Positions 38,060 through 56,577 of a stretch of DNA of 64,000 bases are shown here, piece after piece. The stretch covers positions 910,774 to 974,773 of the forward strand of contig CAWBDZ010000011.1 in assembly GCA_963787665.1 (NCBI GenBank), in the 5' to 3' direction. Numbering within the stretch: the first letter of the stretch is position 1; the number at the start of each line of letters is the position of its first letter. Position numbers and translations under genes: made by a program. Below the pieces are notes generated by a model. The model searched no databases. It had not been told where the DNA came from and was given only the letters and a program-made list of their open reading frames with translations. The DNA comes from an uncultured Actinomycetota bacterium. Lineage in GTDB: Bacteria > Actinomycetota > Actinomycetes > Streptosporangiales > Streptosporangiaceae.

Positions 38060-39322
38060 ATGGCCACCGATGTCCAGCCGCAGAATGCCCGGATCTGGCT
38101 GACCTTCCGCGAGTCGTCGTCAGCGACCAAGACCATCCTGGCCGGAGTTTTCGTGAACCGGCTGGGCGGCTTCCTGACCGTGTTCCTGGTGCTCTACATG
38201 GTGGCCAAGGGGTACTCCGTCGAGCAGGCGACGGCTGGCCTCGGCGTATACGGCGCTGGCGCAGTGGTCGGCCTGCTGATCGGCTCGATGCTCGCGGACC
38301 GGCTTGGCGCGCGGGTCGCAACCGTGATCAGCATGGGCGGCCTCGGAGTGCTGACAACCGGACTGCTGTACCTGCCCAGCTATTACCTGCTGCTGGCTGC
38401 CCTGCTCCTGAACGGCCTCGTCGGCCGCATCTACCGCCCGGCCTCGGCGACGCTGCTCTCCGACCTGACGCCGCCGGATCGCCAGGTGATGATCTTCGCC
38501 ATGTACAGGTTCGCGTTAAATGTCGGTGCCACCGCAGCGCCGCTGATCGGCTTCGCGCTGTACAGCCTCGGTCATCACGAGTTCACGCTGCTGTTCTGGG
38601 CCGACGGGATGACTTCGGCGGCTTATGCGGTGCTGGCTGCGGTCGCGCTGCCGCGCCACGAGCGCCGCGCGGCGGACGAGAAGAAGGGGCAGGTCAAGGC
38701 CAGCCGTTTCCTGATACCGAGGGACGCGCGCTACGGGCTGTACCTGATCGGAACGCTTCTCAGTGTTGCGGTCTACGTGCAGTACCAGTCGACGTTGCCG
38801 CTCGACGTGCGCGCCGCCGGAGTGGCGCTCTTCTGGTACACCCTCGTGGTCGCGATCAACGGAGGCATCGTGATCGCTCTCGAGCTGCTGGTGACCAAGA
38901 CGTCGCAAAAGTGGCCAATCCGGCTGACGATCGCGAGCTCGCTGCTCTTGATCGGGGCCGGCGTGGCTGTCTACGGCCTCCCGCTCGGCCCGGCGATTCT
39001 TATCATCGGCACCCTGATCTGGAGCCTCGGCGAGATCCTCGGCGGCCCGGCGACCTTCGCGTACGCGGCGATGGCGGGCACGGCGCAGCAGAAGAGCCGT
39101 TATATCGGCAGTTTCCAGTTCATGTTCGGCGCCGGGACGGCGCTTGGCCCGGTGGCCGGAGGTGTGCTGTTCACGCATCTGGGTCACCGAGTATGGCCAC
39201 TGATCGCGATCGCCGAAATGGTGGCACTGGCCCTCATGGCGACGGGTATCCGCAGTCCCCGGCCAGTGGCGTCGCCGGAAGCAGGCGGCGCGCTGACATC
39301 AACCGGGCCGACCCAGGCATAG
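38060..39322 (+). CDS. MFS transporter (candidate exporter of adjacent cluster)
   Basis: 420 aa, about 12 hydrophobic helices, MFS loop motif LADRLGAR. Confidence 0.8.
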   Translation: MATDVQPQNARIWLTFRESSSATKTILAGVFVNRLGGFLTVFLVLYMVAKGYSVEQATAGLGVYGAGAVVGLLIGSMLADRLGARVATVISMGGLGVLTTGLLYLPSYYLLLAALLLNGLVGRIYRPASATLLSDLTPPDRQVMIFAMYRFALNVGATAAPLIGFALYSLGHHEFTLLFWADGMTSAAYAVLAAVALPRHERRAADEKKGQVKASRFLIPRDARYGLYLIGTLLSVAVYVQYQSTLPLDVRAAGVALFWYTLVVAINGGIVIALELLVTKTSQKWPIRLTIASSLLLIGAGVAVYGLPLGPAILIIGTLIWSLGEILGGPATFAYAAMAGTAQQKSRYIGSFQFMFGAGTALGPVAGGVLFTHLGHRVWPLIAIAEMVALALMATGIRSPRPVASPEAGGALTSTGPTQA

Positions 39323-39338
39323 CTCAGCCAGCCGCTGG

Positions 39339-40395
39339 TCACCAGCCAGCTATTTCCAGAGCCCCGCGCTGGCTGGCGGCCAGTACCGTCTTGGCCGAAC
39401 TGCCAGAGCCGCCGGTGAAGGTCAGCAGCGACCTGCCCGCGCCTGGTACCGAACGCAGCGACAGGATCGGCGGGTCGCAGAAGCAATCGACAGCACTCGT
39501 CCGGGCTCGCACAGCCCCGAGGCGCAGCCGCGGGAAGCATTCGGCGGCCAGCTGGCCCGCCCGCACGTGCACGGCGGGCATAATGGCCGCGCAGCCAGCG
39601 GCCGCACCCCACTCCCTGACCGGCACGCCGAGGGTGATGCCACCGCCCGGCAGCGGCTTGCCGTAGAGCCCGGTTCGCCCGTCGGTGAAGGCAGGAGGCC
39701 GCCACGGGCCGGCGTCGTAGCTGCTGAACTGAATGGACCTGGTCCGGTAGGCCGGAGCCGGGTAGCCGATGCGGTGCAGCAGGTCGTGGTGTCCATGCGC
39801 CGGCGGCCAGTACCAGCACGTCGTGCTCGCCGTCGATATCTTCGGCCCGCCAGCGCACTCCGCCTTCAGCGCGGACGGTAGCCTCGGTCAGGCCGGCCAG
39901 CTTGACGCGAGTGCGCGGCCGGTCGACGAGGTCAGCGATGAGCGCGTCCCTGAGCCCACCGGGCGACACCGATCCGGCCTGCCGCTCGACAACTGCCGCG
40001 CCGTCGCCGCCGGCCCAGCACTGGCCGTCCGCCGTGCTGCCGAAGGCCTCGGCCGCCGACAGCACAGTTGCGGATCCCGGCAGGGCCCGCTCGATCTCGC
40101 CAACCTGATCCGTCAGGTCGGCGGCGTCGTCCCGCACATACGCGAAGCTGGCTTGCCGGAAGCCTGCCCAGCGCCGCAGCACCTGGCTGGCGAGCAGCTC
40201 GGCCATGCTCGCGATGGCCAGTTCCCGCTGCGCCGCGAGGGTCTCGTACGCCCGCACGGCACCACCAGAGGCGGAGGTTGCGTCCCTTGCGCGGTGCCGC
40301 CCGGTGACCAGATCGACGGTGATGCCAGCGAGCTGCGCCAGCCGCCACGCCAGGGCCGCGCCAGCCAGCCCGCCGCCGGCGACGCATACTCGCAT
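39339..40395 (-). pseudogene. FAD-dependent (DAO/glycine-oxidase-type) oxidoreductase with apparent frameshift near 39783-39808
   Basis: N-terminus MRVCVAGGGLAGAALAWRL (GxGxxG) ...HDVLVLAAGAWT. The neighbouring frame then continues HHDLLHRIGYPAPAYRTRSIQFSSYDAGPWRPPAFTDGRTGLYGKPLPGGGITLGVPVREWG...DCFCDPPILSLRSVPGAGRSLLTFTGGSGSSAKTVLAAS to the stop at 39339-39341. The remainder of the 403-aa track ORF is Arg-rich nonsense. Confidence 0.75.
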
Positions 40396-41852
40396 CAGGC
40401 GCCGGCCGGGTGGCCCGGGGGAGCGCCAGCAGACCCCGGTTCGGCCTCGTGGAAGCAGCAGCTGGCTGCCGCGCCACTGGTCATATTGAGTACGCCGGCG
40501 TCCAGGTCTGGCGTCCCGCGCAGCCGCATCCCGCCGTATCCGCTGGCAGCGAGGTAGGCGCCCCAGATCAGCAGCAATGGCTGCGGACCGTCGTCCGCGG
40601 GAAACAGCTCAGGAACCGGCCGGACACGCTGTTGCAAAACGAACGAGCCGGTCATCGCCGCGGCCAGCTGGCTGTCCCAGTCATCTGGGTCGGTGAGCCA
40701 GCCGGGCACCACCCCGATCCCGCCATGCAAGGCTGTGGGTTTGAGTACTAGTTCGGAACGGTTAGCGCAGGCGTATTCGGTCAGCTCGACTTGCTCGCTG
40801 TTGACGCTCACCGGTCCGGGACGCATCATTCGGGTCCAGGGCAGCAACCGGTCCAGGCTTGCCAGTTCGGCAGCGCTGCACAGATGACGGTTGGCCTCGT
40901 CCGATAGCAATGCCAGCGCCCCTTTGGATGCATAGAGCTGGGAGTCCATTGGCGTGAAGATCTGCACTTCGCCGCGTTCGGCAGCACGCAGTACTGGGTC
41001 GATGAGCGCGGGCCCGTCCGGGTCAAGCAGGTCCTCGATGAGGAAGATGCGGTAAATCACGTCGATCGGCCGCCGGCCCAGCCAGACCCGGCGATCGTGC
41101 ACTGCCAGTTCGCCCAGGTGGCACGGAACCAAGTCGATGCCGTAGCCGGCATACACCCGGGCGCTGGTGCGCAGGACGGCCTTCCAGGTGTCGATCGTGC
41201 CGGGCCAATCGACGGCGGCGATCAGCCTTCCGTCACCTGCGCTGCCGCCGGTTTCGGCGAAGATCGTCCCGGCGGTCTCCGCGAGAGTGTCTGTGTAGGT
41301 GAGGCCGTGCGCCGCAACGAACTCCGCGATCACGGGATGCGCGAGGCATGCCCGGTTGAGCATGACGTTGTCGCCGCCGCCAACCGAGCTGCCAATGTTG
41401 ACCTCCATCAGCTTGAAGCCGGTGTCGTCAAGGTAAAGGTCGCCGCGCGCCATCTTGGTCGGCGTTGCACTTTGGGTGCGCATGATGGCAGTGACCTGCA
41501 CGTCGGTCATTCCGACCGCCCTGGCGAAGGCGGCGACGTCGCCGCCGAACAGGCGCTCGGGCAGTGCCGTCAGCGCGGCGTGCAGGTTCTGCAAGTCCGC
41601 CGTTAGCCGCGTCTTCTCGGCGTAGCCGAGGAAGGACGGCCGGCTCAGGCAGCGGTCGAAGAAGGTGGTCGCGGCGAGGTCCGTTGTGCTGCGGGCTACC
41701 TCCAGCAGCTCGCCAGCCCGCATTCCTCGCCTCGCCACCTCCTTGAGATACAGCTCCACCAGCTCGTCATGGATCATGTAGTGCTGCCCTTCGCGGGAGT
41801 GTGCCTTGCGGCGCGGCAGGCCGGCAACGGCCCCGGCCGGCGTGCGGGTCAT
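40395..41852 (-). CDS. ATP-grasp-fold ligase-like protein (glutathionylspermidine-synthase / circularly permuted ATP-grasp-like), function unknown
   Basis: About 485 aa. ARGDLYLDDTGFKLMEVNIGSSVGG and SELVLKPTALHGGIGVVPG resemble pre-ATP-grasp/ATP-grasp segments. Start either ATG 41850-41852 (ATGA overlap with the upstream gene) or ATG at about 41777 (MIHDELVELYL). Its stop shares 1 nt with the start of the flavoprotein gene. Confidence 0.5.
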   Translation of the reverse strand: MTRTPAGAVAGLPRRKAHSREGQHYMIHDELVELYLKEVARRGMRAGELLEVARSTTDLAATTFFDRCLSRPSFLGYAEKTRLTADLQNLHAALTALPERLFGGDVAAFARAVGMTDVQVTAIMRTQSATPTKMARGDLYLDDTGFKLMEVNIGSSVGGGDNVMLNRACLAHPVIAEFVAAHGLTYTDTLAETAGTIFAETGGSAGDGRLIAAVDWPGTIDTWKAVLRTSARVYAGYGIDLVPCHLGELAVHDRRVWLGRRPIDVIYRIFLIEDLLDPDGPALIDPVLRAAERGEVQIFTPMDSQLYASKGALALLSDEANRHLCSAAELASLDRLLPWTRMMRPGPVSVNSEQVELTEYACANRSELVLKPTALHGGIGVVPGWLTDPDDWDSQLAAAMTGSFVLQQRVRPVPELFPADDGPQPLLLIWGAYLAASGYGGMRLRGTPDLDAGVLNMTSGAAASCCFHEAEPGSAGAPPGHPAGA

Positions 41853-43177
41853 GTCGCGGCAGCTGCTGCCGCGGTTGGCGCGGCGGCTCCGGGCCCGGAA
41901 TGCTGCCATGGCATGGCGGTCTTCGTGAGCGGCTGCCCAGCGAGCTTGACGTCGATCCGCTCGGCGAATTCCTCCAGCGTCCGCTTCACGGCGCTGAAAG
42001 ACGGGCCGATCACGATGAGAAAGCCGAGGATGTTGTTGCCATGCGGCGGCCGCAGGATGACGTCGCCAGGACTGGCGGTGATCTTCGCCATCAGGGTCAG
42101 TTCAGATTCGCTGACCTCAGGAGGCACCGAGACGAACTCCAATTCACCCTCGTCGCAGATCAGGCAGGTGCCCATCATGTGCACGCCCGTCGGCCGGTAG
42201 TGGCTGACCCTGGGCCGGACGCCGCGTGCCACATCCATGACGGCTCGGATGGGACAGTAGTCGGCAGTGGCGCGAGCGACCAGGTCAAGCCCGCCGCCAC
42301 CCGGCCGGATCGCGATCTCCAGCAGATGCGGCTCACCGTGGTGGTACCGGATCTCGGCATGCAGGACGCTTCGCCTGATGCCTTGCGCGTGCGCCGCGGC
42401 CTTGACGATCGCGTGAATCTTTGCCAGCTCACCGGCACTCAGCGAGGTGGGCGCCTGGTGCACGTCGTCGTCGAAAGTCTCGCCCTCGAGTGTGACGCGG
42501 TCTACGGCCGAGCCCAGATAGACCTCGTCGTCCCAGGCCAGCGCTTCGAACAGGTACTCCGAACCAGCCAGGAACGACTCGATCATCAGGCCGCCCGGCC
42601 CGATGTCGATGCCCTCGGCCTCGGCAAGCAGGGTGGGCATGTGCTGGATACCCTCGATCGCGTCCTGGTACCTGACAGCGAGCATGGCCTCGTCGTCCAC
42701 CCGGAAGACAAAACTGCTGGCTGCGCCGAGAGTCGGCTTCAGGACCACCGGGTAGCCGAACTCTCGCGCCGTCGCCGCCGCCTCGGCGAGGCTGGTGACA
42801 TGGCGGAATCGCGGATGGGCAGCGCCCGCCCGCTCGTGCGCCTGGCGCATGAGCAGCTTGTTGCGGCTTCGTTGGGCAGCTTCCAGCCCGACACCTGGCA
42901 ACCTCAGCGCGTCCGCAACCACCGCGACGGCGGCGACCGCGGCTTCGGCGAACGTGAAGACACCGTCGAAATGCTCTTCAGCGTGCCAAGCCCTGGCGGC
43001 CGCGACGATGTCGTCGATCCGCTGGGATCCGACGATCCTGTACCTCTCCGCCGGCCAGTAGTCCGCCTCGCCAAGGCCATTGAGCACGAACAGGTCGGCG
43101 CCAAAGTCCCTGACCTGTTCGTAGCGAGACAGATGCACGTGGCCGCGCTGGCGGGCCTCGATGGCAAGTAACTTCAT
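41849..43177 (-). CDS. ATP-grasp domain protein (L-amino-acid-ligase-like)
   Basis: RNKLLMRQAHERAG, FGYPVVLKPTLGAASSFVFRV, LMIESFLAGSEY, LLEIAIRPGGGG. ATG 43175-43177 is preceded by GGAGGGA. Confidence 0.8.
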   Translation of the reverse strand: MKLLAIEARQRGHVHLSRYEQVRDFGADLFVLNGLGEADYWPAERYRIVGSQRIDDIVAAARAWHAEEHFDGVFTFAEAAVAAVAVVADALRLPGVGLEAAQRSRNKLLMRQAHERAGAAHPRFRHVTSLAEAAATAREFGYPVVLKPTLGAASSFVFRVDDEAMLAVRYQDAIEGIQHMPTLLAEAEGIDIGPGGLMIESFLAGSEYLFEALAWDDEVYLGSAVDRVTLEGETFDDDVHQAPTSLSAGELAKIHAIVKAAAHAQGIRRSVLHAEIRYHHGEPHLLEIAIRPGGGGLDLVARATADYCPIRAVMDVARGVRPRVSHYRPTGVHMMGTCLICDEGELEFVSVPPEVSESELTLMAKITASPGDVILRPPHGNNILGFLIVIGPSFSAVKRTLEEFAERIDVKLAGQPLTKTAMPWQHSGPGAAAPTAAAAAAT

Positions 43178-43270
43178 GACTCCCTCCGCTCCGGACTGAG
43201 GCTCGGGCTCCGCTGGCATGAGCCACGCACTTGCGCGTTTGCGGCAAGCGGCGACGGCACGGCCGCCAGG

Positions 43271-43660
43271 TCAGGACGTGGCGGTGCCGTCAGCGATCGC
43301 CGACTTGTCATGACGGGTGCCGAACTGACTGGCCAGGTCGGCATCCCACCACACGCTGAAGAACTGGAAGTCGTCTGTGCCGGCGTTGATGAGCTGATGA
43401 TTGCGACCCGGCGGGAAGTGCACGAGGTCACCAGGCAGGAACGGGGCGCGCTCGCCTTCTGATTCCAGCTCGCCCTCGCCCGACACGGCAAGGAAGATCT
43501 CGTACTCGTGGTGCGCGTGCGGGTCGGTCGCGCCGCCGGGCTCGATGACGCAGAACGCTCCCTCGAACGGCGCATTGAGCGCGGCCCACGGCATCAGCCG
43601 CTGGACCTGCACGCCGTATTCGGACGGCATATTCGCGCGGTCAAGCCGGTGAATTTCCAT
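43271..43660 (-). CDS. stand-alone cupin-domain protein
   Basis: 129 aa. Both cupin motifs are intact: GGATDPHAHHEYEIFLAVSG (G-x5-HxH-x3-E-x6-G) and GDLVHFPPGRNHQLIN (G-x5-PxG-x2-H-x3-N). Confidence 0.85.
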   Translation of the reverse strand: MEIHRLDRANMPSEYGVQVQRLMPWAALNAPFEGAFCVIEPGGATDPHAHHEYEIFLAVSGEGELESEGERAPFLPGDLVHFPPGRNHQLINAGTDDFQFFSVWWDADLASQFGTRHDKSAIADGTATS

Positions 43661-43675: not shown

Positions 43676-45073
43676 CTAGGCGGTGGCGGCCGTCGCGGCC
43701 GCCGGGGCACTGGTTAAGTTCGGGCTGGCCGACTGCGGCATGGCTATCGCCGGGTCGGCCGAGGCGTGGCCGTCGCTGGCGGCGTTGCCGTTGGCGCGGT
43801 CGAGCGCGGTTTCGGCTGCCCGACGTGCGAGGATGTCATCGACTATCTCGCCCGCCCGGACGGCGAGCACGCTTATCAGCGAGTCGGCGATGCCATGCGT
43901 ATCCTCATTGACTCCCTGCAGATAGCAGCCCGCGCGCACCGATGGCGGTGTGATCATCCGGTATGCGCGGCTGACTTCGATCTCCTCGACACCGCACGCA
44001 CTGGCCGCACAGAGAGCGAGTGGCGGCATCCGTGATTCGAAGCCAGTGCCCAGCATGACCAGGTCGCACTGGTGTTCCCGGTCGGTGCCAGTCATCTGGT
44101 CACGGAGGCTGAGTACGACTTCGCCGTGCCGCATGACGGCGTCGGTTACGTCGGCCATGGTGATCATGGACAAGCGTTGCTGGCCGGTAAGCTTCTCCAG
44201 GTACATCTGCCGGAACAACGTGTCGAGCATCTCCGGGGTAACGCCCGCATAGTTGGTCTTGCGCATGGCGTGCAGTACCTGCTTCCGGACGTCAGCAGGT
44301 GCCGCGAAGAATTTATCCGTATAAGACGGGAAATAAAGCTCGTTAGTGAACTTGCTGGTCTGGTAGTAATCCAGGCCTATGGTTCGCATGACCATCGCGC
44401 ACTGCGACTTTGGCATTCGCTGGTGCGTCTCCCAGAGCATCTCAGCGGCACTCTCCGCGGCGCCGACCACGACCACGCGCAACGCCGCTTCTGGGTCGAT
44501 GTCGGCCACCCGGGCCGAGTACTCCGTGCTGTGGATGACGCGCTCAGCCGGCAGCCGGCGGAACGTTTCCGGCACGTGCGCTTCGCGGCCGGCCCCGACC
44601 ACCAACGTCTTGGCACCGATCGTCGACCCGTCAGCCATGGTGACCAGCCAGCCAGTAATCGTGTCGGCGCCAGAATTGACCGCCTCAATCCGCGCGCACT
44701 TGCGGCCGTACTGGATGCTCACCTTCTCCAGCGACTGGGCAACCCAGCTCAGGTATGCCGATATCTCTAACCGGAACGGCAGGAAGCTGGCCATGTTCAC
44801 GAAATCGTGCAGGCGGCCTTCAGAGTGCAGGTAGTTCACGAACGAGAACCTGCTCAGCGGGTTGCGCATCGTCACGAGGTCCTTGATGAAGGAGACCTGA
44901 CTCTGCGTCCAGGGCAGTAGCATGCCGCGTTGCCAGGCGACGCCATCATGCTGCTCGATGATCAGGGTGTGCTTCGCGAGATCGGCAGGAGCCATTTCCT
45001 CGATTGCGACGGCAAATGCCAGATTAGAAGGCCCGGCACCGATCGCTAGGATCTCGACTTGCTGATGATTCAC
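43676..45073 (-). CDS. L-lysine N6- / L-ornithine N5-monooxygenase family flavoprotein (IucD/PvdA/SidA type)
   Basis: 465 aa. EILAIGAGPSNLAFAVAI (FAD), VVVVGAAESAAEM (NADPH), DLVMLGTGF. Lies 15 nt upstream of the cupin gene. Confidence 0.85.
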   Translation of the reverse strand: MNHQQVEILAIGAGPSNLAFAVAIEEMAPADLAKHTLIIEQHDGVAWQRGMLLPWTQSQVSFIKDLVTMRNPLSRFSFVNYLHSEGRLHDFVNMASFLPFRLEISAYLSWVAQSLEKVSIQYGRKCARIEAVNSGADTITGWLVTMADGSTIGAKTLVVGAGREAHVPETFRRLPAERVIHSTEYSARVADIDPEAALRVVVVGAAESAAEMLWETHQRMPKSQCAMVMRTIGLDYYQTSKFTNELYFPSYTDKFFAAPADVRKQVLHAMRKTNYAGVTPEMLDTLFRQMYLEKLTGQQRLSMITMADVTDAVMRHGEVVLSLRDQMTGTDREHQCDLVMLGTGFESRMPPLALCAASACGVEEIEVSRAYRMITPPSVRAGCYLQGVNEDTHGIADSLISVLAVRAGEIVDDILARRAAETALDRANGNAASDGHASADPAIAMPQSASPNLTSAPAAATAATA

Positions 45074-49822: not shown

Positions 49823-50824
49823 GTGGGCGCGCGTGATCTCCGGCCGGCCGATGGTGACGAAGGTTATCGGACACGGCAGTTTGGCGTCGGGATCGGCTAT
49901 GCCCCGGCCCACCACGGCGAACTGCTGCAGGGCATCTTCGATGATGGTGCGGGGCACCTGCGCCGGGCGCTTGTCACCTTGCCGCAGCGGGGGCGGGGTA
50001 GCCGCGCGGTGTTCAGGCCGAGCGGGAATCACTGGGGCGTTGTCGGAACGCCGGAACTTGTGAAGGTGAGGCGCGCGGCGGTACTCGCGCTGCGCGAGTT
50101 CGCCACCCACCCGGCCCCGGTCAAGGGCGGCCAGATCGAGATCATCAGGGACTTCCCGCTGGGCGTGGGGATGGGCTCGTCGACCAGTGACGTCACCGCG
50201 ACGATCCGCGCGGTTGCTGATTTCCACGGTGTCATGCTGTCGCGCGAAGAAGTTGGCCGGCTGGCTGTGCTGGCTGAGGTTGCCTCGGACTCGATCATGA
50301 TCGATGACCGTGTCGTGCTTTTCGCCCACCGCGACGGGCAGGTACTGGAGACGTTCGGTCACCGGCTGCCGTCCATGATCGTCGTTGGTTGCGATACCCA
50401 GCCAGGATCGGTCGTCGACACTCTCGGCCTGCAGCAGGCTGACTACAGCAGCCGGGAAGTGGGAGCTTTTCAGGTCTTGCGTGGTGCGATCCGGCGAGCA
50501 ATCGCGACCGAGGATGTGGCGCTGCTGGGCCGGGTGACGACGGCAAGCGCCCGTATCAACCAGCGATTCCTGGCCAAGCCCGCGCTGGAGACCCTGCTCG
50601 AGCTGAACCTTCGGCTCGGCGGCTGCGGCATCCAGGTCGCGCATAGCGGCACTGTAGCCGGGCTGATCTTCGACTCGAGGCTGCCCGGAATCGAGGCCAC
50701 GGTCGAGCGCTGCGTCACGGGTATCAACGAGATTGGCCTCGCGATGACCGCGGTGATCAGTCCGCAGCCTGCAGCGGGCGGCAGCGCGCCGCCAGTGCCG
50801 GTCACTGCGATGGTGTCGGCGTGA
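49823..50824 (+). CDS. GHMP-family kinase (PduX/L-threonine-kinase-like)
   Basis: 333 aa. N-terminal APAHHGELLQG and GHMP motif II PLGVGMGSSTSDVTA. Confidence 0.7.
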   Translation: MGARDLRPADGDEGYRTRQFGVGIGYAPAHHGELLQGIFDDGAGHLRRALVTLPQRGRGSRAVFRPSGNHWGVVGTPELVKVRRAAVLALREFATHPAPVKGGQIEIIRDFPLGVGMGSSTSDVTATIRAVADFHGVMLSREEVGRLAVLAEVASDSIMIDDRVVLFAHRDGQVLETFGHRLPSMIVVGCDTQPGSVVDTLGLQQADYSSREVGAFQVLRGAIRRAIATEDVALLGRVTTASARINQRFLAKPALETLLELNLRLGGCGIQVAHSGTVAGLIFDSRLPGIEATVERCVTGINEIGLAMTAVISPQPAAGGSAPPVPVTAMVSA

Positions 50825-51924
50825 TGAGCATCAGAACTAGCTACGCCGAAGCCACTGACGCCTATCAGCTGCCGCGTCTGATCAGGTTGACCGCCAATCT
50901 CTATGCCGCCAGCTTCACCTTGATGAAGATGATCCCGGCCCGTTACATCCTGCGCCAGGCCGCAGCTCTCGGGACGCTGGAACCAGGCGCGGTCATCACG
51001 GAGACAACCTCGGGCACCTTCGGGCTCGCACTGGCGATGCAAGCCGTGCATATGGGCCACCCCCTGATCCTGGTCAGCGATCCCGTCATCGACGAGCGGC
51101 TTTACCGCAGGCTGACTGACCTGGGTGCAGTCGTGGACCGGGTGCCCGCCTCGGCGAGTGCGATGGCCGGCGGGTTCCAGGCCGCGCGCCTGCAGCGGCT
51201 TGCCGAGATACGCGCGGAGCACGAGCTCACTTTCTGCCCCGAGCAGTACTCGAATCCGGATAACCCGCGCTCGTACGCCACTGTCGCCGAGCTGTTCCTG
51301 GAATGCCTGGGTCAGGTCGACTGCATGGTGGGCCCGGTCGGATCTGGCGGCTCCATGTGCGGGACGGTGACCGCACTGCGATCCATCATTCCGGAGTGCC
51401 GCGCCATCGGGGTCGATACTCACGGGAGTGTGCTATTCGGACACGCCGACGGCCCGCGTGAACTGCGCGGAATGGGCATGAGCCTGATGCCAGCCAACTT
51501 GGATCACCGGGTCTTCGACAGCGTGCACTGGTGCGCGCCCGGGCCGGCTTATCTGGCCACCCGGCAGTTGCACCGCCAGCACGCGCTGTTCATGGGACCG
51601 TCCAGCGGCGCCGCCTACCTGGTGGCTCTGTGGTGGGCGAACGCCAACCCGGGTGCCGTCACCGTGGTCATGCTGCCCGACGAGGGATACCGCTACCAGG
51701 ACACCGTCTATGACGACGAATGGCTGCGGGCGCACGGACACACTGATCAGCCGCTGCCGGCCGACCCGGTGACCGTCGCCGATCCGGCCCGGCCGGAAGG
51801 CAACTGGACCGAGTACAACTGGGCACGCCGCTCATACGCCCAGGTGCTCGCAGCGCAGGCCGAGCGGTTGGGCGCTCAGATTGCCGACAGCGAACCGGTC
51901 GCGGGCCAGGTGAGCGCGCGTTGA
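50821..51924 (+). CDS. PLP-dependent fold-type II enzyme (cysteine synthase / SbnA-like beta-replacement enzyme)
   Basis: 367 aa. FTLMKMIPA (candidate PLP Lys), ETTSGTFGLALA, GPVGSGGSMCG, GPSSGAAY. Overlaps both neighbours by 4 nt. Confidence 0.75.
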   Translation: MMSIRTSYAEATDAYQLPRLIRLTANLYAASFTLMKMIPARYILRQAAALGTLEPGAVITETTSGTFGLALAMQAVHMGHPLILVSDPVIDERLYRRLTDLGAVVDRVPASASAMAGGFQAARLQRLAEIRAEHELTFCPEQYSNPDNPRSYATVAELFLECLGQVDCMVGPVGSGGSMCGTVTALRSIIPECRAIGVDTHGSVLFGHADGPRELRGMGMSLMPANLDHRVFDSVHWCAPGPAYLATRQLHRQHALFMGPSSGAAYLVALWWANANPGAVTVVMLPDEGYRYQDTVYDDEWLRAHGHTDQPLPADPVTVADPARPEGNWTEYNWARRSYAQVLAAQAERLGAQIADSEPVAGQVSAR

Positions 51925-53420
51925 CGGGGACCGGACGGCTGCTGGGTGAACTCGGGCCGTGGACCCAGCGCGTCGTCTATGGCGAGCTAACTCAGGCCGA
52001 CATCGATGCTGAACTGCCGCTGATGGTGCAGGTCGATCAGGCGCATCTGGTCATGCTCGCGGAGCAGGAGCTTATCCCGGCGGCAGCCGCTGCGGATTTG
52101 CTGCGCTGCATTGACGCGCTAGCGGCGCAGCGGTTCGCACCGCTGCTTCAACGGCCAGCGCCGCGCGGCCTCTATCTCATGTACGAGGGCTACCTCATCG
52201 AGCAACTCGGCGCCGACATCGGCGGCGTGCTGCACTCCGGCCGGTCCCGGAACGATCTGAAGGCAACGATCACGAGCCTGCGACTTCGGGCCTGGCTGCT
52301 GGGTTTCACTGCGCAGGCAGTCCGGCTCGAGGCGGTGCTGCTGTCCAGGGCCCGGGCCTACCGGGCGATCGTGATGCCTGCCTACACCCACTTCCAGGCA
52401 GCGATGCCAGTCACCTATGGCTACTACCTGCTCGGGATAGCTATCGCGCTCGGCCGTGAGATCGACGCGCTGCAATCTGCCGCGGCGGGTCTGCAGGCCA
52501 GTCCGCTCGGCGCGGCGGCTGTGGCCGGCACCGATCTGCCGATCGACGCCGGTCGCACGGCACGGCTGCTCGGATTCTCCGGCCCGCATGGCCACGCGCT
52601 GGATGCCGTGGCGAGCAGGGATGTACCGCTGCGGCTACTCGCCGCTGCCACCGGGGCGGGAATCGTGCTGAGCCGCCTGGCGACCGACCTCCAGCTATGG
52701 AGCACATTTGAATTCGGCCTGATCAGCTTTCCGGACCGGCTAGTCGGCGGCAGTTCTGCGATGCCGCAGAAGCGCAACGCTTTCCTGCTCGAGCATGTCA
52801 AGGCGAAGGTGGGTCACGCTCTTGGTGCCTGGGCCGGCGCTGCGGCGATGATGGCAGCCGCGCCGTTCACGAACTCGATCGAGGTCGGCACCGAAGCGAT
52901 GGCCGGCATCTGGCCCGGCCTGCTAGCCGCAGAGCAGAGCGTGCTGCTTGGTCAGGTGCTCGTGAGCGGCGCCCGGCCCGCTGCGGCTCGCATGATGCAG
53001 CGTGCCCAGACAGGGTTCACCACCGCGACGGCGGTGGCCAACCGCCTGGTCCGCTGCGGCGTCCCCTTCCGCACTGCGCACCACATGGTCGGTGACGCGG
53101 TGCGTCAGGCGGTGGAAGCCGGTTCGACCGAGCTGGCTGACTTCGGCCCGCCAGGCTGGCTGGACCGGATCGAGCTAGCCGATCTTGATTTGCCATCGGT
53201 TGTCCGCGCGCACGTGCACGGCGGCGGTCCGGGCGCGTTCGCTGACTTGTTCAGTAACGCTGTGCAGGCGTGGACGCATCACCATGACTGGCTGAACGCG
53301 TGGCGAGCGAACGACGTCGCGGCGGGAACGATGCTTGCCGCGGCCGTCCAGCAGTTGTCCGGCAGCCTTCTTCGATCGGCTGAGCCTGAGGTCGCCGCTG
53401 ACCGGGAGCGCGCGCGGTGA
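51921..53420 (+). CDS. argininosuccinate-lyase-like (fumarase/aspartase superfamily) lyase
   Basis: 499 aa. HSGRSRNDLKAT, MPAYTHFQAAMPVT, GGSSAMPQKRN signature, and GVPFRTAHHMVGDAV, which closely parallels the E. coli ArgH segment GVPFREAHHIVGEAV. Confidence 0.8.
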   Translation: MTGTGRLLGELGPWTQRVVYGELTQADIDAELPLMVQVDQAHLVMLAEQELIPAAAAADLLRCIDALAAQRFAPLLQRPAPRGLYLMYEGYLIEQLGADIGGVLHSGRSRNDLKATITSLRLRAWLLGFTAQAVRLEAVLLSRARAYRAIVMPAYTHFQAAMPVTYGYYLLGIAIALGREIDALQSAAAGLQASPLGAAAVAGTDLPIDAGRTARLLGFSGPHGHALDAVASRDVPLRLLAAATGAGIVLSRLATDLQLWSTFEFGLISFPDRLVGGSSAMPQKRNAFLLEHVKAKVGHALGAWAGAAAMMAAAPFTNSIEVGTEAMAGIWPGLLAAEQSVLLGQVLVSGARPAAARMMQRAQTGFTTATAVANRLVRCGVPFRTAHHMVGDAVRQAVEAGSTELADFGPPGWLDRIELADLDLPSVVRAHVHGGGPGAFADLFSNAVQAWTHHHDWLNAWRANDVAAGTMLAAAVQQLSGSLLRSAEPEVAADRERAR

Positions 53421-54676
53421 CGTCAGGCTGGTTCGTGCTCGTGGAGAGCAACACCACCGGGTCAGGCAGGCTGTTCTGCGAACGCGCTCGCAAGCTCGGG
53501 CTCGTTCCGGTCATGCTCGCTCGCGATCCGGGCAGGTATCCGTACCTACGCCGGGACGCCATCGAAGGGCGGCTAGCCGACACCGCCGACCCGGATGCGC
53601 TGCTGGCGGCCTGCGCGAAGCTCGGCGGCCGGATCGCTGGGGTCACGAGCAGCTCGGAATACTTCATCGGGATAGCGGCGCAGGTCGCCCGGTCGCTCGG
53701 GCTGCCGCACCCCGACCCGGCCGCCATCGCGTGCTGCCGGGATAAGCAAGCACAGCGAACCCGGTTCCGCCGAGCCGGCCTGCCGTGCCCGGCGTACGAA
53801 GCCGCGAGCACCGCCAAAGATGCCGTCGCCACGGCGCGCCGGATTGGGCTGCCGGTCGTGGTCAAGCCGATAGCCGGATCCGGCTCAGTGGGCGTGCGGC
53901 TTTGTGCGAGCCTGGCCGATGTCGCAGCGGCGGCCGGCCACGTTCTCGGCTCCGATGCTGCCGCGTTAGGCCTTCCGCCGCAGGGATCGGTGCTGGTAGA
54001 GCAATTGCTTGACGGGCCGGAGTATTCGGCCGAGGTGCTCGGTGGCGAACTGGTAGGCATCACCCGGAAGTGGCTGGGACCGTTGCCTTACTTCGTCGAG
54101 ATCGGCCATGACTTTCCGGCACCGCTGCTGCCTGCGGAGCAGACGCTGATCCGGCATGCTGCGCTGGCTGGGCTGCACGCCGTGGGCCTGAACTCTGGCG
54201 CTGCTCACATTGAGCTGCGACGCACTTCGAGCGGCCCGGTCATCGTGGAGATCAATCCGCGGCTGGCCGGAGGCATGATCCCGCGCGCGGTGCAGGAAGC
54301 CACCGGCATCGACATGATCCACCATGTGGTTGCGCAAGCGGCTGGTGTCACCGATCCGCCAGCGCCGACCAGATCCGCAGCGGCTTCGATCCGGTTCCTG
54401 ACCGCGCAAACAACGGGCCGGCTGGCGGCCATCACCGGGATTGAGCTGGCACGGCAGTTGCCCGGGGTCGTCGAGGTGGGCCTCACCTGCGAGATCGGGC
54501 AGCCGGTAGAGGTGCGGCACTCCTTCTCCGACCGTCTCGGATACGTGATCGCGGCGGCAGATTCCGGGCCAGCCGCGGCGCGCGCCGCCGAAGCAGGGCT
54601 GGCCGCATTGGACGCGCAGATCGCGCCGACCGACTCCGGCTACTCCCGCGCGCGGGCGCGGGCGGTGCGACCATGA
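53417..54676 (+). CDS. ATP-grasp domain protein (L-amino-acid-ligase-like)
   Basis: 419 aa. CRDKQAQRTRFRRAG, IGLPVVVKPIAGSGSVGVRL, VLVEQLLDGPEYSAEV, VIVEINPRLAGG. Confidence 0.8.
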   Translation: MTSGWFVLVESNTTGSGRLFCERARKLGLVPVMLARDPGRYPYLRRDAIEGRLADTADPDALLAACAKLGGRIAGVTSSSEYFIGIAAQVARSLGLPHPDPAAIACCRDKQAQRTRFRRAGLPCPAYEAASTAKDAVATARRIGLPVVVKPIAGSGSVGVRLCASLADVAAAAGHVLGSDAAALGLPPQGSVLVEQLLDGPEYSAEVLGGELVGITRKWLGPLPYFVEIGHDFPAPLLPAEQTLIRHAALAGLHAVGLNSGAAHIELRRTSSGPVIVEINPRLAGGMIPRAVQEATGIDMIHHVVAQAAGVTDPPAPTRSAAASIRFLTAQTTGRLAAITGIELARQLPGVVEVGLTCEIGQPVEVRHSFSDRLGYVIAAADSGPAAARAAEAGLAALDAQIAPTDSGYSRARARAVRP

Positions 54677-56577
54677 CGCGGCTCACGACGGCGCCTGTTT
54701 CGGTGGCGATCATCGGCCTGGGCTCGCGCGGGCTCAGCGTGCTCGAGCGGATCGTGACGCTTGCCCGGCTGGGCGGACTGGCGCCGGGCCAGGTCCAGGT
54801 CGAGGTCATCGACCCGGCCTGCACCGGCGCGGGTGTGCATGATCTCAGCCAGCCCGACTATCTCCTGCTCAACACCACTTGCTCGCAGGTTTCGATGTTT
54901 CCCGATTCGTGCACGGTGGGAGCAGACACCGGTTCGGCCGGGCCGAGCCTGCATGCCTGGGTTGCCGAGCGGGGACTCCGGCTGGCAGCAGACGGCTATA
55001 CGGTCGGCCAGACCGGCCGGCCGATCAGGCCGACCGACTTCCTGCCGCGCCGCCTGCTCGGCGAATATCTCAGCTGGTTCTTCGGCCAACTGCGCGCGCA
55101 GGCGGCCGGCCACGTACTGCTGAACATGCACGCAGCGACCGCGGTTGACCTTTCGCCTGCAGCTGACGACAGGCTGTTGGTCAGCTTGTCGGACGGCAGC
55201 TGCGTTCAGGCGAGCCAGGTGTTCCTCACCACCGGTTACACGCCGAACAGCACTGCGCGTGGTCGGTCCGCTCCTCCGCGCCTGATCGCTGAGCCGTACC
55301 CGTTGCCTGAGCGCCTTGCTGGCCTGGCAGCTGGCCAGCCGGTCGCCGTCGCCGGATTCGGCCTGTCGGCGATGGACGTGATGTCGTGCCTGACCGTCGG
55401 CCGTGGTGGTCGATTCGTCAACCGCGACGGCAGCCTTGAATACCTGCCAAGCGGGCACGAGCCCGCGCTGCTGATGTACTCGCGCTCTGGCATACCGTGC
55501 CGGGCCAGGCCGCAGGTTGTCGAGTTCGGGCCGAAGTATGAGCCGCTGGCTTTCACGTCGGCCGGCATCGATGCCGTGCGGGCCCGGCGGCGCGGCCCGC
55601 TCGATTTCGATGCTGACGTGCTGCCCCTGATTCTCGCTGAAATGCGGATCGCCTATCGCCGGTGCCAGGCGCGATGCGCGGGCGGCGACGCCGAGGTGGC
55701 TCTCGACCGAGCGCTCGGCCGGGCAAGTGGCGGTACGGACCTGGCCCGGCTGACGGCCGCGCTCGACGAGATGGACGCGCGGCTAGGGAGATTCGACGCG
55801 GCCGCCACATTAGACGGATCAGCCGGGATGGACCTGGCCGACGCGGCGGCCTATCAGCGCTGGCTGTCGGGCTATGTGTCGGCCGACCTGGCCGAGGGCC
55901 TGTCTGGATTCGCGGGCAGTCCGGTGAAGGCGGCCCTGGACGTGCTGCGGGAGCTGCGCGACACATTCCGGTACGCGGTGGACTTCGGCGGTCTGACGCC
56001 AGCGTCGCTCGACGAGTTCACCAGGCGCACGATACCGGCAGTGAACCGGGCGGTCGTCGGGCCACAATATGAGCGGCATCTTGAGCTCCTCGCGTTGCTA
56101 GCGGCTGGAGTTGCCCGCGTGCCGTTCGGCCCGGCACCTGAGGTAAGGCTGAATCGTGACGCGTGCCGCTGGACGATCCGCGCGACGCGGCTGCGCTCGG
56201 CGTACTCCGCCGAGGTTGACTGGCTCGTTGCAGCCCAGGTCCCGCTGCCGGCGGTTGCCTCATCTGCGAGCCCGCTGCTGGCCTCGCTGCATCGCAAAGG
56301 CTGGATCCGGCCGCACCGGGCGGATAGCACTCTGGTGCGCGGCATCGATATTGACCGCGACCAGCATCCCATTGACGCGGGCGGCGTCCCTGACCACCGG
56401 ATCTGGGTGCTGGGGCCGCTCTGCGAGGGAGCCACTTTCTACAACAACCTGGTCCCATCGCCGAAGATGGCATCGCGGCCGGTCTTCGACGCGCACCGTT
56501 GCGTGAATGCCATGCTCACGGCCAGCCAGTGGCAGCCCGACCGGAAGAGCGACGCGCTCCGCCAGCCCATCGGGTGA
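54673..56577 (+). CDS. FAD/NAD(P)-binding flavoprotein (PF13454-type; possible amine/aspartate N-oxygenase)
   Basis: 634 aa. N-terminal VAIIGLGSRGLSVLERIV dinucleotide fold and a second Rossmann segment VAVAGFGLSAMDV. ATGA overlap with the upstream ATP-grasp gene. Confidence 0.65.
   Translation: MTRLTTAPVSVAIIGLGSRGLSVLERIVTLARLGGLAPGQVQVEVIDPACTGAGVHDLSQPDYLLLNTTCSQVSMFPDSCTVGADTGSAGPSLHAWVAERGLRLAADGYTVGQTGRPIRPTDFLPRRLLGEYLSWFFGQLRAQAAGHVLLNMHAATAVDLSPAADDRLLVSLSDGSCVQASQVFLTTGYTPNSTARGRSAPPRLIAEPYPLPERLAGLAAGQPVAVAGFGLSAMDVMSCLTVGRGGRFVNRDGSLEYLPSGHEPALLMYSRSGIPCRARPQVVEFGPKYEPLAFTSAGIDAVRARRRGPLDFDADVLPLILAEMRIAYRRCQARCAGGDAEVALDRALGRASGGTDLARLTAALDEMDARLGRFDAAATLDGSAGMDLADAAAYQRWLSGYVSADLAEGLSGFAGSPVKAALDVLRELRDTFRYAVDFGGLTPASLDEFTRRTIPAVNRAVVGPQYERHLELLALLAAGVARVPFGPAPEVRLNRDACRWTIRATRLRSAYSAEVDWLVAAQVPLPAVASSASPLLASLHRKGWIRPHRADSTLVRGIDIDRDQHPIDAGGVPDHRIWVLGPLCEGATFYNNLVPSPKMASRPVFDAHRCVNAMLTASQWQPDRKSDALRQPIG

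Follow-up and report, generated by a model that had tools for sequence, protein, structure and literature searches.

The locus examined here raises the question of whether a bacterium could build a natural product with a nitrogen-nitrogen bond from amino acids with neither an NRPS nor a PKS, and whether the genes that would do this are still in working order. Within the window, which is the whole 64,000-nucleotide stretch of DNA, the block at 38,060-56,577 was analysed by ORF calls, Pfam and NCBIfam profiles, and PDB/Foldseek comparisons. Judged from these comparisons, it is quite likely that the block is a functional-type cluster without NRPS or PKS, whose product would be a small, N-N-bonded, peptide-like metabolite that is built from amino acids and exported.

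Layout of the locus

The ORF calls and the Pfam and NCBIfam profiles recovered the complete gene set claimed in the original prediction, in the predicted order and on the predicted strands. The genes form two divergent operons around a 709-bp spacer, and the transporter gene, lying end-to-end with the DAO gene, converges on the minus operon as described.

38060-39322, plus: MFS transporter (Pfam MFS_1, E 2e-34)
39339-40395, minus: DAO-family FAD oxidoreductase (Pfam DAO), candidate for the role of Spb39/Tri27/FuzF, hydrazino acid release
40395-41777, minus: glutathione-synthetase/glutathionylspermidine-synthase-like ATP-grasp amide ligase (GSS-like ligase; from predicted structure; alternative start 41852)
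41849-43177, minus: AG1, ATP-grasp of the L-amino-acid-ligase type (Pfam ATP-grasp_4 and LAL_C2)
43271-43660, minus: standalone zinc cupin, putative N-N-bond-forming component (Cupin_2, E 2e-16)
43676-45073, minus: Lys/Orn-type flavin-dependent N-hydroxylase, which would make the hydroxylamine partner (PF13434, E 3e-85)
45201-46514, minus: AG2, ATP-grasp ligase (Pfam ATP-grasp_4; N-terminal half of NF002563, 169 bits)
46511-46882, minus: avidin/calycin-like 8-stranded beta-barrel, 123 aa (precomputed Pfam PF26421; 100% match to P0137)
46975-48345, minus: standalone MetRS-like protein, putative O-aminoacyl-hydroxylamine synthetase and large component of a hydrazine synthetase (Pfam tRNA-synt_1g, catalytic core only)
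48346-49054, no strand: divergent promoter spacer (709 bp when counted to a methyltransferase start at GTG 49055; 60% GC)
49055-49771, plus: class I SAM-dependent methyltransferase (Pfam Methyltransf_11/25; alternative start ATG 48965)
49823-50824, plus: GHMP kinase, DabA-like Thr/Ser kinase (Pfam GHMP_kinases_N/C), first in a kinase-PLP-lyase order
50821-51924, plus: SbnA/CysK-family PLP beta-replacement enzyme, DabB-like (PALP, E 4e-31)
51921-53420, plus: argininosuccinate-lyase-like lyase, counterpart of the DabC C-terminal half, predicted to eliminate fumarate (Lyase_1 and ASL_C2)
53417-54676, plus: AG3, ATP-grasp and counterpart of the DabC N-terminal half (NF002563 positions 3-396, 369 bits)
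54673-56577, plus: CreE/FzmM-family flavin N-oxygenase (PF13454, E 6e-31)

The genes tile the interval, so that no carrier protein, NRPS or PKS could fit within 38,060-56,577, in agreement with their stated absence. Overlaps had been described at almost every junction. This applies to the plus operon, where four of the five junctions are 4-nt overlaps, but not to most of the minus operon, where two or three of seven overlap and the remainder are gaps of 15-127 bp; overall, about half of the junctions overlap. Likewise, the length of the proposed 700-bp AT-rich spacer stands, but its AT-richness is merely relative (60% GC against 67% for the cluster).

The GTG start of the methyltransferase at 49055 is preceded by an AAGGAGG Shine-Dalgarno sequence. 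Alignments with homologues begin at residue 23 or beyond, in most cases at 26-33, and the orthologue at locus L065 is 238 aa long; depending on the start, the plus operon spans 48965/49055-56577. The spacer contains a promoter-like site, TTGGCA-17-TAGACT, at 48684-48656 on the minus strand, directed toward the hydrazine operon and invariant across the window and L001-L004. No family was matched in an Rfam search of the spacer.

The putative hydrazine-forming genes

The MetRS-like protein lacks an anticodon domain according to Pfam, and scored 184 with the NCBIfam metG model, far under the cut-off of 587. Its top PDB match was the hydrazine synthetase domain PyrN-C (9l8v/9vq4; E 3e-60, 36% identity), whereas the best true MetRS match was weaker (E 1e-41), which agrees with its earlier assignment as a hydrazine component rather than a housekeeping MetRS. 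When compared by the residue roles of PyrN-C (bioRxiv 10.1101/2025.08.22.671884), it keeps HIGH, KFSTx (as KFSTS), eight of eight zinc-knuckle cysteines, and T141, N143, D420, N421, N449 and Y452, including the catalytic Asp/Asn. Unlike in PyrN, Ser and Phe stand in place of the glutamate-binding R390 and R425, the side-chain pocket code starts Pro-Gln, the protein is shorter (456 aa) and the surrounding pathway differs; the two replacements and the Pro-Gln code make glutamate an unlikely substrate of this enzyme.

The likeness to PyrN/PyrM of the pyrazomycin pathway extends to the cupin, in which H48, H50, E54 and H88 have spacing identical to the metal/Glu tetrad H50/H52/E56/H90 of PyrN. The PDB matches of the cupin were 4rd7 (E 5e-42), plu4264 (E 3e-26) and RHS1 (5UQP, E 6e-11). 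PyrN carries a His-His-Glu-His tetrad and RHS1 is a proven N-N-forming cupin (PMC8664883); the shared tetrad together with the RHS1 match supports the assignment of the cupin to the hydrazine machinery. As in the RHS1 system of Rhodococcus jostii, the hydrazine-synthetase components in the window are split and standalone. The hydroxylase and the DAO-type oxidase share the operon of the MetRS-like protein and the cupin and are conserved together with them. The hydrazine-machinery reading came through every sequence test that was run, and none of the refuting outcomes that were checked was seen. By sequence and predicted structure, the minus operon carries a putative hydrazine-synthetase cassette complete in its four parts.

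Conservation of the block in related genomes extends to dozens of actinobacterial genomes. With close loci defined as those having the MetRS-like gene at >=60% identity, and partner genes counted within 10 kb, 42 were found across Streptosporangiaceae, Micromonosporaceae, Pseudonocardiaceae, Frankiaceae, Jatrophihabitantaceae and other families, the closest (L001) being a MAG labelled Streptosporangiaceae bacterium. The methyltransferase was present in 36/42, the PLP enzyme in 33/42, AG2 in 32/42 and the N-oxygenase in 30/42. Such recurrence across several actinobacterial families shows that the arrangement of the genes is not due to chance. There are two cluster architectures with non-orthologous hydroxylase/cupin pairs; the function has therefore been kept while the parts were swapped.

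Three other readings of these genes were weighed. PF13434 hydroxylases commonly belong to siderophore pathways, and the nearest structures here are the lysine N6-monooxygenase MbtG (E 2e-71) and the ornithine enzyme PvdA (E 5e-68), with almost equal scores, as well as SidA; the N-hydroxylase and ATP-dependent ligases could then give N-hydroxy-amide iron ligands of a hydroxamate siderophore. We regard this as extremely improbable, as Pfam detected neither an IucA/IucC synthetase nor an acyltransferase or NRPS in the block, and no siderophore receptor or ABC importer either, and the hydroxylase is linked to a cupin and a MetRS-like protein that match proven N-N-forming enzymes. At 17 Kribbella-type loci, a MetRS-like gene of 50-55% identity has just two of these partners, the barrel and the GSS-like ligase, and the trio lies beside the housekeeping genes ispE, rsmA, rpfB, tatD and a true metG, and also ABC-F and EF-G/TetM-like genes. 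Because no hydroxylase, cupin or oxidase was found within 10 kb at these loci, the MetRS-like lineage may also work outside hydrazine formation; a hydroxylase and a cupin might lie elsewhere in the Kribbella genomes. It is however very unlikely that the trio in the window is itself a separate aminoacyl-transfer/ligation module that serves mainly another purpose than the N-N bond and to which hydroxylase, cupin and oxidase are an add-on. The Kribbella proteins are only 47-56% identical to those of the window and differ in the pocket (PP..HQNW against PQ..HPN[FY]), the window protein retains the hydroxylamine-contacting N143, D420 and N421, and the cupin and PF13434 hydroxylase accompany all orthologues of >=65% identity with long enough flanks on both sides. 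The last reading concerns the DAO gene, in which the Pfam match is limited to residues 2-206 because a 1-nt insertion near 39,785 shifts the second half into another frame. The insertion sits in the conserved GAWTP motif, not in a homopolymer run, and is unique to the window when compared with eight relatives; a true pseudogene would give no free hydrazino acid, leaving the cluster a decaying remnant with its pathway off or truncated. This is unlikely, though it deserves some weight. Both halves are stop-free in their own frames, the region has 89-91% DNA identity to intact orthologues, and the remaining 14 genes of the block are all intact. The gene is intact in one frame in L001 and L002, and the L037 orthologue matches the DAO profile over its full length. 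Comparable split matches were seen in related MAG assemblies (AG3 and the GSS-like ligase in L004, PF13454 in L012, the PLP enzyme in L029, ligases in L006 and L034); such indels therefore recur in these assemblies, and the frameshift is more likely an assembly error than the sign of a dead pathway.

Diamino-acid cassette, N-oxygenase and ligases

The original prediction matched the surrounding tailoring set to none of the characterised hydrazine clusters that it named; part of this set can be identified, as the kinase, PLP enzyme, ArgH-like lyase and one ATP-grasp correspond to the known DabABC 2,3-diamino-acid cassette (PMC10906522; NF002563). In dabABC, known from Burkholderia thailandensis, friulimicin and pacidamycin for (2S,3R)-2,3-diaminobutyrate or L-Dap, the genes follow a kinase-PLP-lyase order, and DabC is split into two proteins in other clusters (PMC10906522). 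The window has the same gene order and enzyme families. The lyase covers positions 410-885 of the DabC-type fusion model NF002563 (420 bits), so that together with AG3 it accounts for the fusion, while the PLP enzyme scored 199 bits with TIGR03945 (SbnA family), under the equivalog cut-off of 350. On this evidence the kinase, PLP enzyme, lyase and putative partner AG3 form a split DabABC cassette. Unlike dabABC, it feeds an NRPS-free pathway and shares its operon with a methyltransferase and an N-oxygenase, and in L065 the N-oxygenase (PF13454), not the lyase, carries the ATP-grasp half as a fusion partner.

The N-oxygenase matches the L-aspartate N-hydroxylase of Streptomyces sp. V2 (8cp2) over its full length (E 2e-65, 35% identity). 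It has the fold, the length and the FAD/NADPH sites of CreE/FzmM of the nitrosuccinate/nitrite pathway, and the arginine cluster is mostly preserved; R13, N62, R266, R409, R412 and R416 are kept. In the triacsin cluster, a hydrazine synthetase occurs alongside homologues of CreE and CreD, and the ArgH-like lyase of the block shares the aspartase/fumarase superfamily with CreD. By analogy, the protein could be a genuine aspartate N-hydroxylase whose nitrite, formed via nitrosuccinate, is coupled to the hydrazine; the result would be a triazene, diazo, azide or N-nitroso group. This seems improbable to us. The sole lyase of the block is of the DabC/ArgH type, its nearest PDB entries being true ArgH proteins with CreD not among the matches, and Pfam detected no CreM/Tri17-type ATP-dependent nitrite-using ligase in the block. 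In the entry chamber N413 is replaced by Asp and R577 by Ser, R276 is altered, and R593 and R597 are lost; all orthologues with a readable position have Asp or Glu at 413 and Ser at 577, and an N413E mutant was made to block aspartate binding (PMC10404684). The fusion of AG3 to this enzyme in L065 also ties it to the Dab cassette. From its sequence, we place the protein in the CreE/FzmM family with an altered aspartate pocket.

By sequence or predicted structure, AG1, AG2 and the GSS-like enzyme are three amide- or hydrazide-forming ligases. AG1 best matched the L-amino-acid ligase BL00235 (E 2e-23) and BacD in the PDB, and accompanies the hydroxylase-cupin block in 16/16 type-A loci. AG2 is the ligase most constantly tied to the hydrazine cassette, and is also found in the minimal clusters L046 and L060. 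The GSS-like ligase (40395-41777) matched no Pfam or NCBIfam profile, and PF14403 was found in a few homologues; in Foldseek, its AlphaFold2 model (pLDDT 87) matched human glutathione synthetase (E 3e-16), the E-64 ligase Cp1B (9cjn) and the GspS-like 3n6x/YgiC, in support of the earlier "GSP-synthase-like" call. The small beta-barrel was also correctly foreseen (8 strands predicted, pLDDT 90.8), with avidins and nitrobindin as Foldseek matches (TM about 0.57). Its gene overlaps the AG2 start by 4 nt, and its family includes fusions with GNAT, racemase, methyltransferase, ACT and ATP-grasp domains. The barrel may be a ligand-binding helper of AG2; it is absent from some full clusters, such as L065.

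Relation to known systems and predicted product

Microbispora fusca, the organism of the fuscazine (fuz) cluster, belongs to Streptosporangiaceae. In fuz, four hydrazine genes and two ATP-grasp ligases lead to a hydrazide tripeptide (Nat Chem 2026, PMC13149037). Compared by description, both systems are independent of NRPS and PKS, with a separate cupin and MetRS-like protein, a flavin N-hydroxylase, a flavin oxidoreductase, and ATP-grasp ligases that build a hydrazide/amide peptide. The tRNA-deacylase marker and Fe/2-oxoglutarate arginine hydroxylase of fuscazine are absent from the window, which in turn has the DabABC cassette, the CreE-family N-oxygenase, the glutathione-synthetase-like ligase, the methyltransferase and the avidin-like barrel. 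The claim of novelty holds in part: the cluster is uncharacterised, but the concept of NRPS-independent ATP-grasp ligases with a hydrazine synthetase has precedent in fuscazine (PMC13149037). The hydrazine synthetase family to which the MetRS-like protein and the cupin are related comprises PyrN/PyrM, RHS1, Spb38-40, Tri26-28, Apy9/11, AzsN and ThzN. Real and uncharacterised, the cluster is a good genome-mining lead from a soil actinobacterium.

In the pathway that we propose, the PF13434 flavoenzyme would N-hydroxylate a diamino acid, with lysine N6 as the best guess, and the MetRS-like enzyme would adenylate an amino acid and esterify it onto the N-OH. The zinc cupin could convert this ester to a hydrazine by rearrangement, and the DAO-type oxidase would then remove the carrier amino acid to leave a free alpha-hydrazino acid. 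The Dab cassette would turn phospho-threonine into 2,3-diaminobutyrate, or phospho-serine into diaminopropionate, with aspartate as the nitrogen donor and fumarate leaving. The PF13454 N-oxygenase may act on the Dab-pathway amine, not on free aspartate. AG2 and the other ligases could link the hydrazino acid with the diamino acid and one or two further acids via hydrazide/amide bonds, in the manner of FuzC and FuzH in the fuscazine pathway, and the methyltransferase, the avidin-like barrel and an exporter would complete the set. The MFS transporter is the probable exporter of the product, and an MFS gene is found near the cluster in 20 of the 42 close loci.

Gene content and borders of the cluster

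The window has a GC content of approximately 68%, and the interval 38,060-56,577 is tiled by long ORFs with a coding-type GC3 bias. By searching Pfam and NCBIfam, the gene list of the original prediction was reproduced gene for gene, with two divergent operons that include the ATP-grasp proteins AG1, AG2 and AG3. The proteins of approximately 460 aa and 123 aa gave no match in the Pfam/NCBIfam search.

Genes of the two operons, in operon order (minus strand from 48,345 down, plus strand from 48,965/49,055)
46975-48345, minus: MetRS-like protein
46511-46882, minus: 123-aa protein (barrel)
45201-46514, minus: AG2, ATP-grasp protein
43676-45073, minus: PF13434 Lys/Orn N-monooxygenase (N-hydroxylase)
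43271-43660, minus: Cupin_2 protein (cupin)
41849-43177, minus: AG1, ATP-grasp with L-amino-acid-ligase C-terminal domain
40395-41777, minus: protein of ~460 aa (GSS-like ligase)
39339-40395, minus: DAO-family flavoprotein
from 48,965/49,055, plus: class I methyltransferase, then GHMP kinase, SbnA-family PLP enzyme and ArgH-like lyase
53417-54676, plus: AG3, ATP-grasp protein
54673-56577, plus: PF13454 flavoprotein
convergent with the DAO gene: MFS transporter gene

The absence of a carrier protein, NRPS or PKS was confirmed, and the interval leaves no space for any. Start/stop overlaps of 1-4 nt had been described for almost every junction; they were found at four of the five plus-strand junctions but at only two or three of the seven on the minus strand. 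Similarly, the AT-rich spacer of 700 bp was correct in its length (709 bp) but is merely a mild dip in GC content (60% vs 67%).

Several blocks in the spacer (48346-49054) are invariant across the window and the related loci L001-L004, including a promoter-like TTGGCA-17-TAGACT on the minus strand (48684-48656), which would give the MetRS-like operon a leader of approximately 310 nt. No riboswitch or T-box was matched in the spacer with Rfam, either at the gathering threshold or at E 5 or better. The conserved blocks are confined to these four closest relatives and were not found in more distant ones.

To the right, a HipA_2-like kinase ORF (56507-57517) starts within the 3' end of the N-oxygenase (PF13454) gene and is kept only in L001-L004. 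It is followed, within 58088-60537, by a homoserine dehydrogenase gene and an uncharacterised ORF (59461-60537), the latter presumably a thr-operon gene. These three genes look like the right border, lying outside the cluster. The left flank (1265-30478 and 35447-37831) contains ordinary mixed metabolism: a BNR-repeat protein, a sulfotransferase, an Orn/DAP decarboxylase, a short-chain dehydrogenase, a large LuxR-family STAND regulator (12237-15116), an acyl-CoA dehydrogenase, an NDP-forming acyl-CoA synthetase, a luciferase-like monooxygenase, an amidase and a Lon protease. The Lon protease, which is conserved in L001 and L004, is the left border.

The predicted hydrazine-forming machinery

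The MetRS-like protein (456 aa) consists of the class I catalytic core alone (residues 7-374), without an anticodon-binding domain in Pfam, and scored at most 184 bits against the NCBIfam metG models, which have cut-offs of 336-633. Among all solved structures its best match was PyrN-C (9L8V/9VQ4; E 3e-60), the O-aminoacyl-hydroxylamine synthetase domain of the pyrazomycin hydrazine synthetase PyrN, with the best true MetRS at 1e-41. As the match to PyrN-C is better than that to every true MetRS, and neither a metG-level score nor an anticodon-binding domain was found, the proposal that this protein is part of a hydrazine machinery and not a housekeeping enzyme was supported.

In the alignment with PyrN-C (36% identity), the HIGH motif, all eight zinc-knuckle cysteines, T141, N143, D420, N421, N449 and Y452 are retained, and the motif KFSTS is found where PyrN has KFSTG. 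Glutamate would be an unlikely substrate, because both of the arginines that grip the glutamate side chain in PyrN are replaced in the MetRS-like protein, by Ser257 and Phe298. The pocket (Pro-Gln ... His-Pro-Asn-Phe/Tyr ... Ser ... Tyr-Phe) fits none of the three codes compared, and substrate prediction from these published specificity codes (PyrN, AzsN and ThzN) named no amino acid. The same pocket is constant among the orthologues of at least 65% identity with readable positions, except for four, each differing at one position. Hydrazine synthetases are wanted as biocatalysts, and the cluster offers one with an unreported pocket.

In the cupin, His48, His50, Glu54 and His88 have a spacing equal to that of His50, His52, Glu56 and His90 in PyrN (a His-x-His-x3-Glu...His tetrad), of which Glu56 is essential (PMC8664883). 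The cupin also matches RHS1 from Rhodococcus jostii (5UQP; E 6e-11), a crystallised cupin that has been shown to form an N-N bond. Both the tetrad spacing and the RHS1 match agree with its predicted role as the N-N-forming component. The N-hydroxylase (PF13434, E 3e-85) is encoded 15 bp upstream of the cupin and is nearest to the lysine N6-monooxygenase MbtG, with ornithine enzymes scoring almost as well. It is co-conserved in 16 of the 16 loci with the same arrangement as the window (type A), while another PF13434 enzyme takes its place in the second arrangement (type B); its position beside the cupin and its co-conservation uphold it as the co-located source of hydroxylamine. Judged by sequence, the hydroxylase, MetRS-like protein, cupin and DAO-type oxidase of the window would constitute the four-part machinery of Spb38-40, Tri26-28 and FuzD-G.

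The DAO gene (39339-40395, minus strand) carries one extra base near 39,785 compared to L001, within the conserved GAWTP motif (39,780-39,790), so that only one half of the annotated 403-aa ORF is authentic, the other being out-of-frame read-through. Taken at face value this would be a true pseudogene, which we consider unlikely. The extra base is missing from all eight relatives that align there, the gene is intact in relatives, and removing one base restores a reading frame of 351 aa. An assembly error is the likely explanation, because related MAG assemblies show split hits of this kind in further cluster genes. With tblastn, such hits were obtained in L004 (AG3 and the GSS-like gene), L012 (the PF13454 gene), L029 (the PLP enzyme), and L006 and L034 (ligases); they resemble frame changes, of which only that of AG3 in L004 was traced by hand, and indels look common in MAG assemblies of this sort.

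The diamino-acid cassette, the N-oxygenase and a proposed pathway

The NCBIfam model NF002563 describes an 890-residue 'ATP-grasp + argininosuccinate lyase' fusion, of which positions 410-885 are matched by the ArgH-like lyase (420 bits) and positions 3-396 by AG3 (369 bits). This fusion is DabC of the 2,3-diamino-acid operon dabABC, and DabC also occurs split into two proteins (PMC10906522). In the operon, the threonine kinase DabA is of the GHMP type, the PLP enzyme DabB, of the cysteine-synthase family, swaps the phosphate of O-phospho-Thr or O-phospho-Ser for the amine of L-aspartate, and DabC eliminates fumarate to give (2S,3R)-2,3-diaminobutyrate or L-Dap (PMC10906522). The GHMP kinase, PLP enzyme, lyase and AG3 genes of the window are adjacent and co-oriented, with junctions overlapping by 4 nt. 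Because the lyase and AG3 together cover the DabC fusion model and the DabA and DabB types are present, four of the six plus-strand genes can be assigned to the known DabABC cassette. The original prediction had placed the lyase and the kinase-PLP pair in an unrecognised tailoring set; with the NF002563 and Pfam matches, they belong to this cassette instead.

By analogy, the product of the cassette would be 2,3-diaminobutyrate or diaminopropionate, with aspartate as the nitrogen donor, and the dedicated kinase favours threonine and hence Dab (PMC10906522).

The PF13454 protein aligned over its full length with 8CP2, the L-aspartate N-hydroxylase of Streptomyces sp. V2 from the CreE/FzmM family (E 2e-65, 35% identity). 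Arg13, Asn62, Arg266, Arg409, Arg412 and Arg416 are retained, whereas Asn413 is changed to Asp, Arg577 to Ser and Arg276 to Lys, and Arg593 and Arg597 are lost, so that the aspartate entry-chamber set (R13, R276, N413, R416, R577) is incomplete. Position 413 is Asp or Glu, and position 577 is Ser, in every orthologue where these could be read. In the reference enzyme, the mutant N413E was designed so that steric hindrance and electrostatic repulsion would keep aspartate from binding (PMC10404684). Because of the acidic residue at 413 and Ser577, and the design of N413E to stop aspartate binding, we do not class the protein as an aspartate N-hydroxylase, and it probably no longer uses aspartate; a CreE-family enzyme that has probably given up this substrate is one of the things that the cluster offers.

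No CreD- or CreM-type partner was found in the cluster, in which the sole lyase is of the ArgH/DabC type. This lyase was considered as a CreD partner of the PF13454 enzyme and rejected, given its type and its joint coverage, with AG3, of the DabC fusion model; in the PDB search it was closest to true ArgH enzymes, and CreD was not among its matches.

In L065 (1312-4635, minus strand), AG3 and the PF13454 enzyme form a single protein of 1,107 aa, which is weak evidence of a functional link as adjacent overlapping genes fuse readily. The pocket changes and this fusion suggest that the PF13454 enzyme may oxidise an amine of the Dab pathway. The fuller idea, in which the CreE-family enzyme has been retargeted to a Dab-pathway intermediate and the cluster combines an alpha-hydrazine with an N-oxygenated neighbouring amine, is improbable in our view. 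If it were true, the enzyme could act on the N-alkyl-aspartate adduct or directly on the vicinal diamine, and the product could hold three nitrogens in a row or an N-N-N unit closed into a ring (triazene or 1,2,3-triazoline/triazole type). Alternatively, it could hold a hydrazide together with an N-hydroxy or diazeniumdiolate group. In either case, the synthesis would be free of nitrite, NRPS and PKS. In a related scenario, aspartate would carry the hydrazine as hydrazinosuccinate, from which the PLP enzyme and lyase could set the hydrazine on C-beta of Thr/Ser, giving a beta-hydrazino amino acid.

The remaining two proteins were approached through predicted structures. The model of the ~460-aa protein (pLDDT 87) has matches among eukaryotic-type glutathione synthetases (E 3e-16), as well as to the E-64 pathway ligase Cp1B and to GspS-like proteins, in line with its earlier description as a GSP-synthase-like ATP-grasp, and PF14403 is present in a few of its homologues. 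The 123-aa protein, whose gene overlaps AG2 by ATGA, is predicted to form an eight-stranded up-and-down barrel (pLDDT 90.8) that resembles avidins, nitrobindin and fatty-acid-binding proteins (TM ~0.57, weak E-values), and may be a small-ligand-binding helper domain. The family of this domain (precomputed PF26421) had 741 representatives at E 1e-3 or better in a profile search; the proteins examined (P0324-P0473, e.g. P0363, P0348, P0388, P0357 and P0336) included fusions with GNAT acetyltransferases, an Asp/Glu racemase, a SAM methyltransferase, ACT domains and an AG2 orthologue. Fusion to so many enzyme types suggests a general amino-acid or small-ligand-binding accessory, for which the cluster gives a first functional context.

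The established order of steps in the hydrazine-forming families would have a diamino acid hydroxylated, esterified, rearranged by the cupin to a hydrazine and released oxidatively as an alpha-hydrazino acid. In the diamino-acid families, the order is likewise established, and Thr/Ser would be phosphorylated by the kinase, undergo beta-replacement with Asp and lose fumarate, giving a 2,3-diamino acid. By analogy with fuscazine, AG2 (the constant ligase), AG1 and the GSS-like ligase could couple these units via hydrazide or amide bonds, possibly together with one or two more acids. The N-oxygenase would modify a Dab-pathway amine, the methyltransferase could cap a nitrogen or carboxylate, and the MFS protein would export the product.

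Relation to known systems and distribution

The nearest system in overall logic is the fuscazine cluster (fuz) of Microbispora fusca (PMC13149037), which shares the hydrazine cassette and at least two ATP-grasp ligases without NRPS or PKS. Compared by description, the window differs from fuz in having no tRNA-deacylase marker and no arginine hydroxylase within 38-57 kb, and the small protein it encodes is no deacylase like the fuz marker but an avidin-like barrel. The nearest enzyme relatives with structures are PyrN-C, RHS1, DabABC (via the family model) and the 8CP2 hydroxylase. Negamycin was considered as a model on account of its hydrazide, methyl and CreE features and was rejected, as the gene sets differ. 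In a literature search, no described cluster was found in which a hydrazine synthetase occurs alongside Dab or CreE-like genes, nor one uniting all three. The cluster family merges these three separately known toolkits (hydrazine synthetase, Asp-donor diamino-acid cassette and CreE-type N-oxygenase) into a compact pathway using ligases only. Few natural products contain an N-N bond, and those that do are often bioactive or of use as warheads.

The MetRS-like query retrieved 647 protein clusters at E 1e-20 or better among 8,000 candidates scored. Scanning one genome per species gave 64 loci, most of them from MAGs of uncultured actinobacteria, several apparently obtained in soil surveys; the closest relatives of the window are MAGs of Streptosporangiaceae and 'uncultured Actinomycetota'. 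The MetRS-like gene was at least 60% identical in 42 loci, the majority from MAGs, apparently of soil origin, of Streptosporangiaceae, Micromonosporaceae, Pseudonocardiaceae, Frankiaceae, Jatrophihabitantaceae, Sporichthyaceae and Nocardioidaceae; two cultured Longispora strains and Labedaea rhizosphaerae also belong to the 42. Within 10 kb of this gene, a methyltransferase was present in 36 of the 42, a PLP enzyme in 33, AG2 in 32 and the PF13454 enzyme in 30.

In type A (the architecture of the window; 16 loci), the genes run N-hydroxylase, cupin, AG1 and are invariably one block. Type B has the order cupin, MetRS-like, DAO, a different PF13434 hydroxylase (approximately 25% identical to that of the window), barrel and AG2. 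The possibility that these type-B relatives are without a cupin was considered and rejected: searching at low stringency and with Pfam revealed a standalone cupin, divergent in sequence (22-30% identical), directly upstream of the MetRS-like gene, in a different frame and therefore not fused to it. As the hydroxylase and cupin are swapped as a pair with all else kept, this argues that the function is under selection.

The full type-B version is carried by at least three cultured strains (Longispora sp. K20-0274, Longispora sp. NPDC051575 and Labedaea rhizosphaerae DSM 45361), making the product experimentally reachable; a literature search for products of Longispora or Labedaea found none. The cluster is a solid, widely distributed and experimentally reachable genome-mining lead, with no categorical surprise.

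More distant loci are without the Dab operon and retain the cupin, MetRS-like, DAO, hydroxylase, AG2 and MFS genes, and some of them add three ATP-grasp genes and an M20 peptidase. ATP-grasp-rich hydrazine clusters seem to be a wider actinobacterial theme. L046 (701-16094) has these six genes and no Dab operon, its cassette being preceded by three extra ATP-grasp genes, two esterases and an M20 peptidase. In L065, the barrel gene is absent, and AG2 is followed by a second ATP-grasp gene and an EryCIII-like glycosyltransferase gene.

The chief finding at odds with a purely 'hydrazine' role for the enzyme lineage is a group of 17 Kribbella-type loci (47-56% identity), in which only the GSS-like ligase, MetRS-like and barrel genes are found, among housekeeping genes. 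This trio (L045-L064, e.g. L056 1681-19793) has ABC-F and EF-G/TetM-like GTPase genes on one side and ispE-rsmA-rpfB-tatD-metG on the other, and in L050 a true MetRS of 600 aa is encoded approximately 5.6 kb from the MetRS-like paralogue. By analogy, the ribosome-protection-like neighbours might hint at a product that targets translation.
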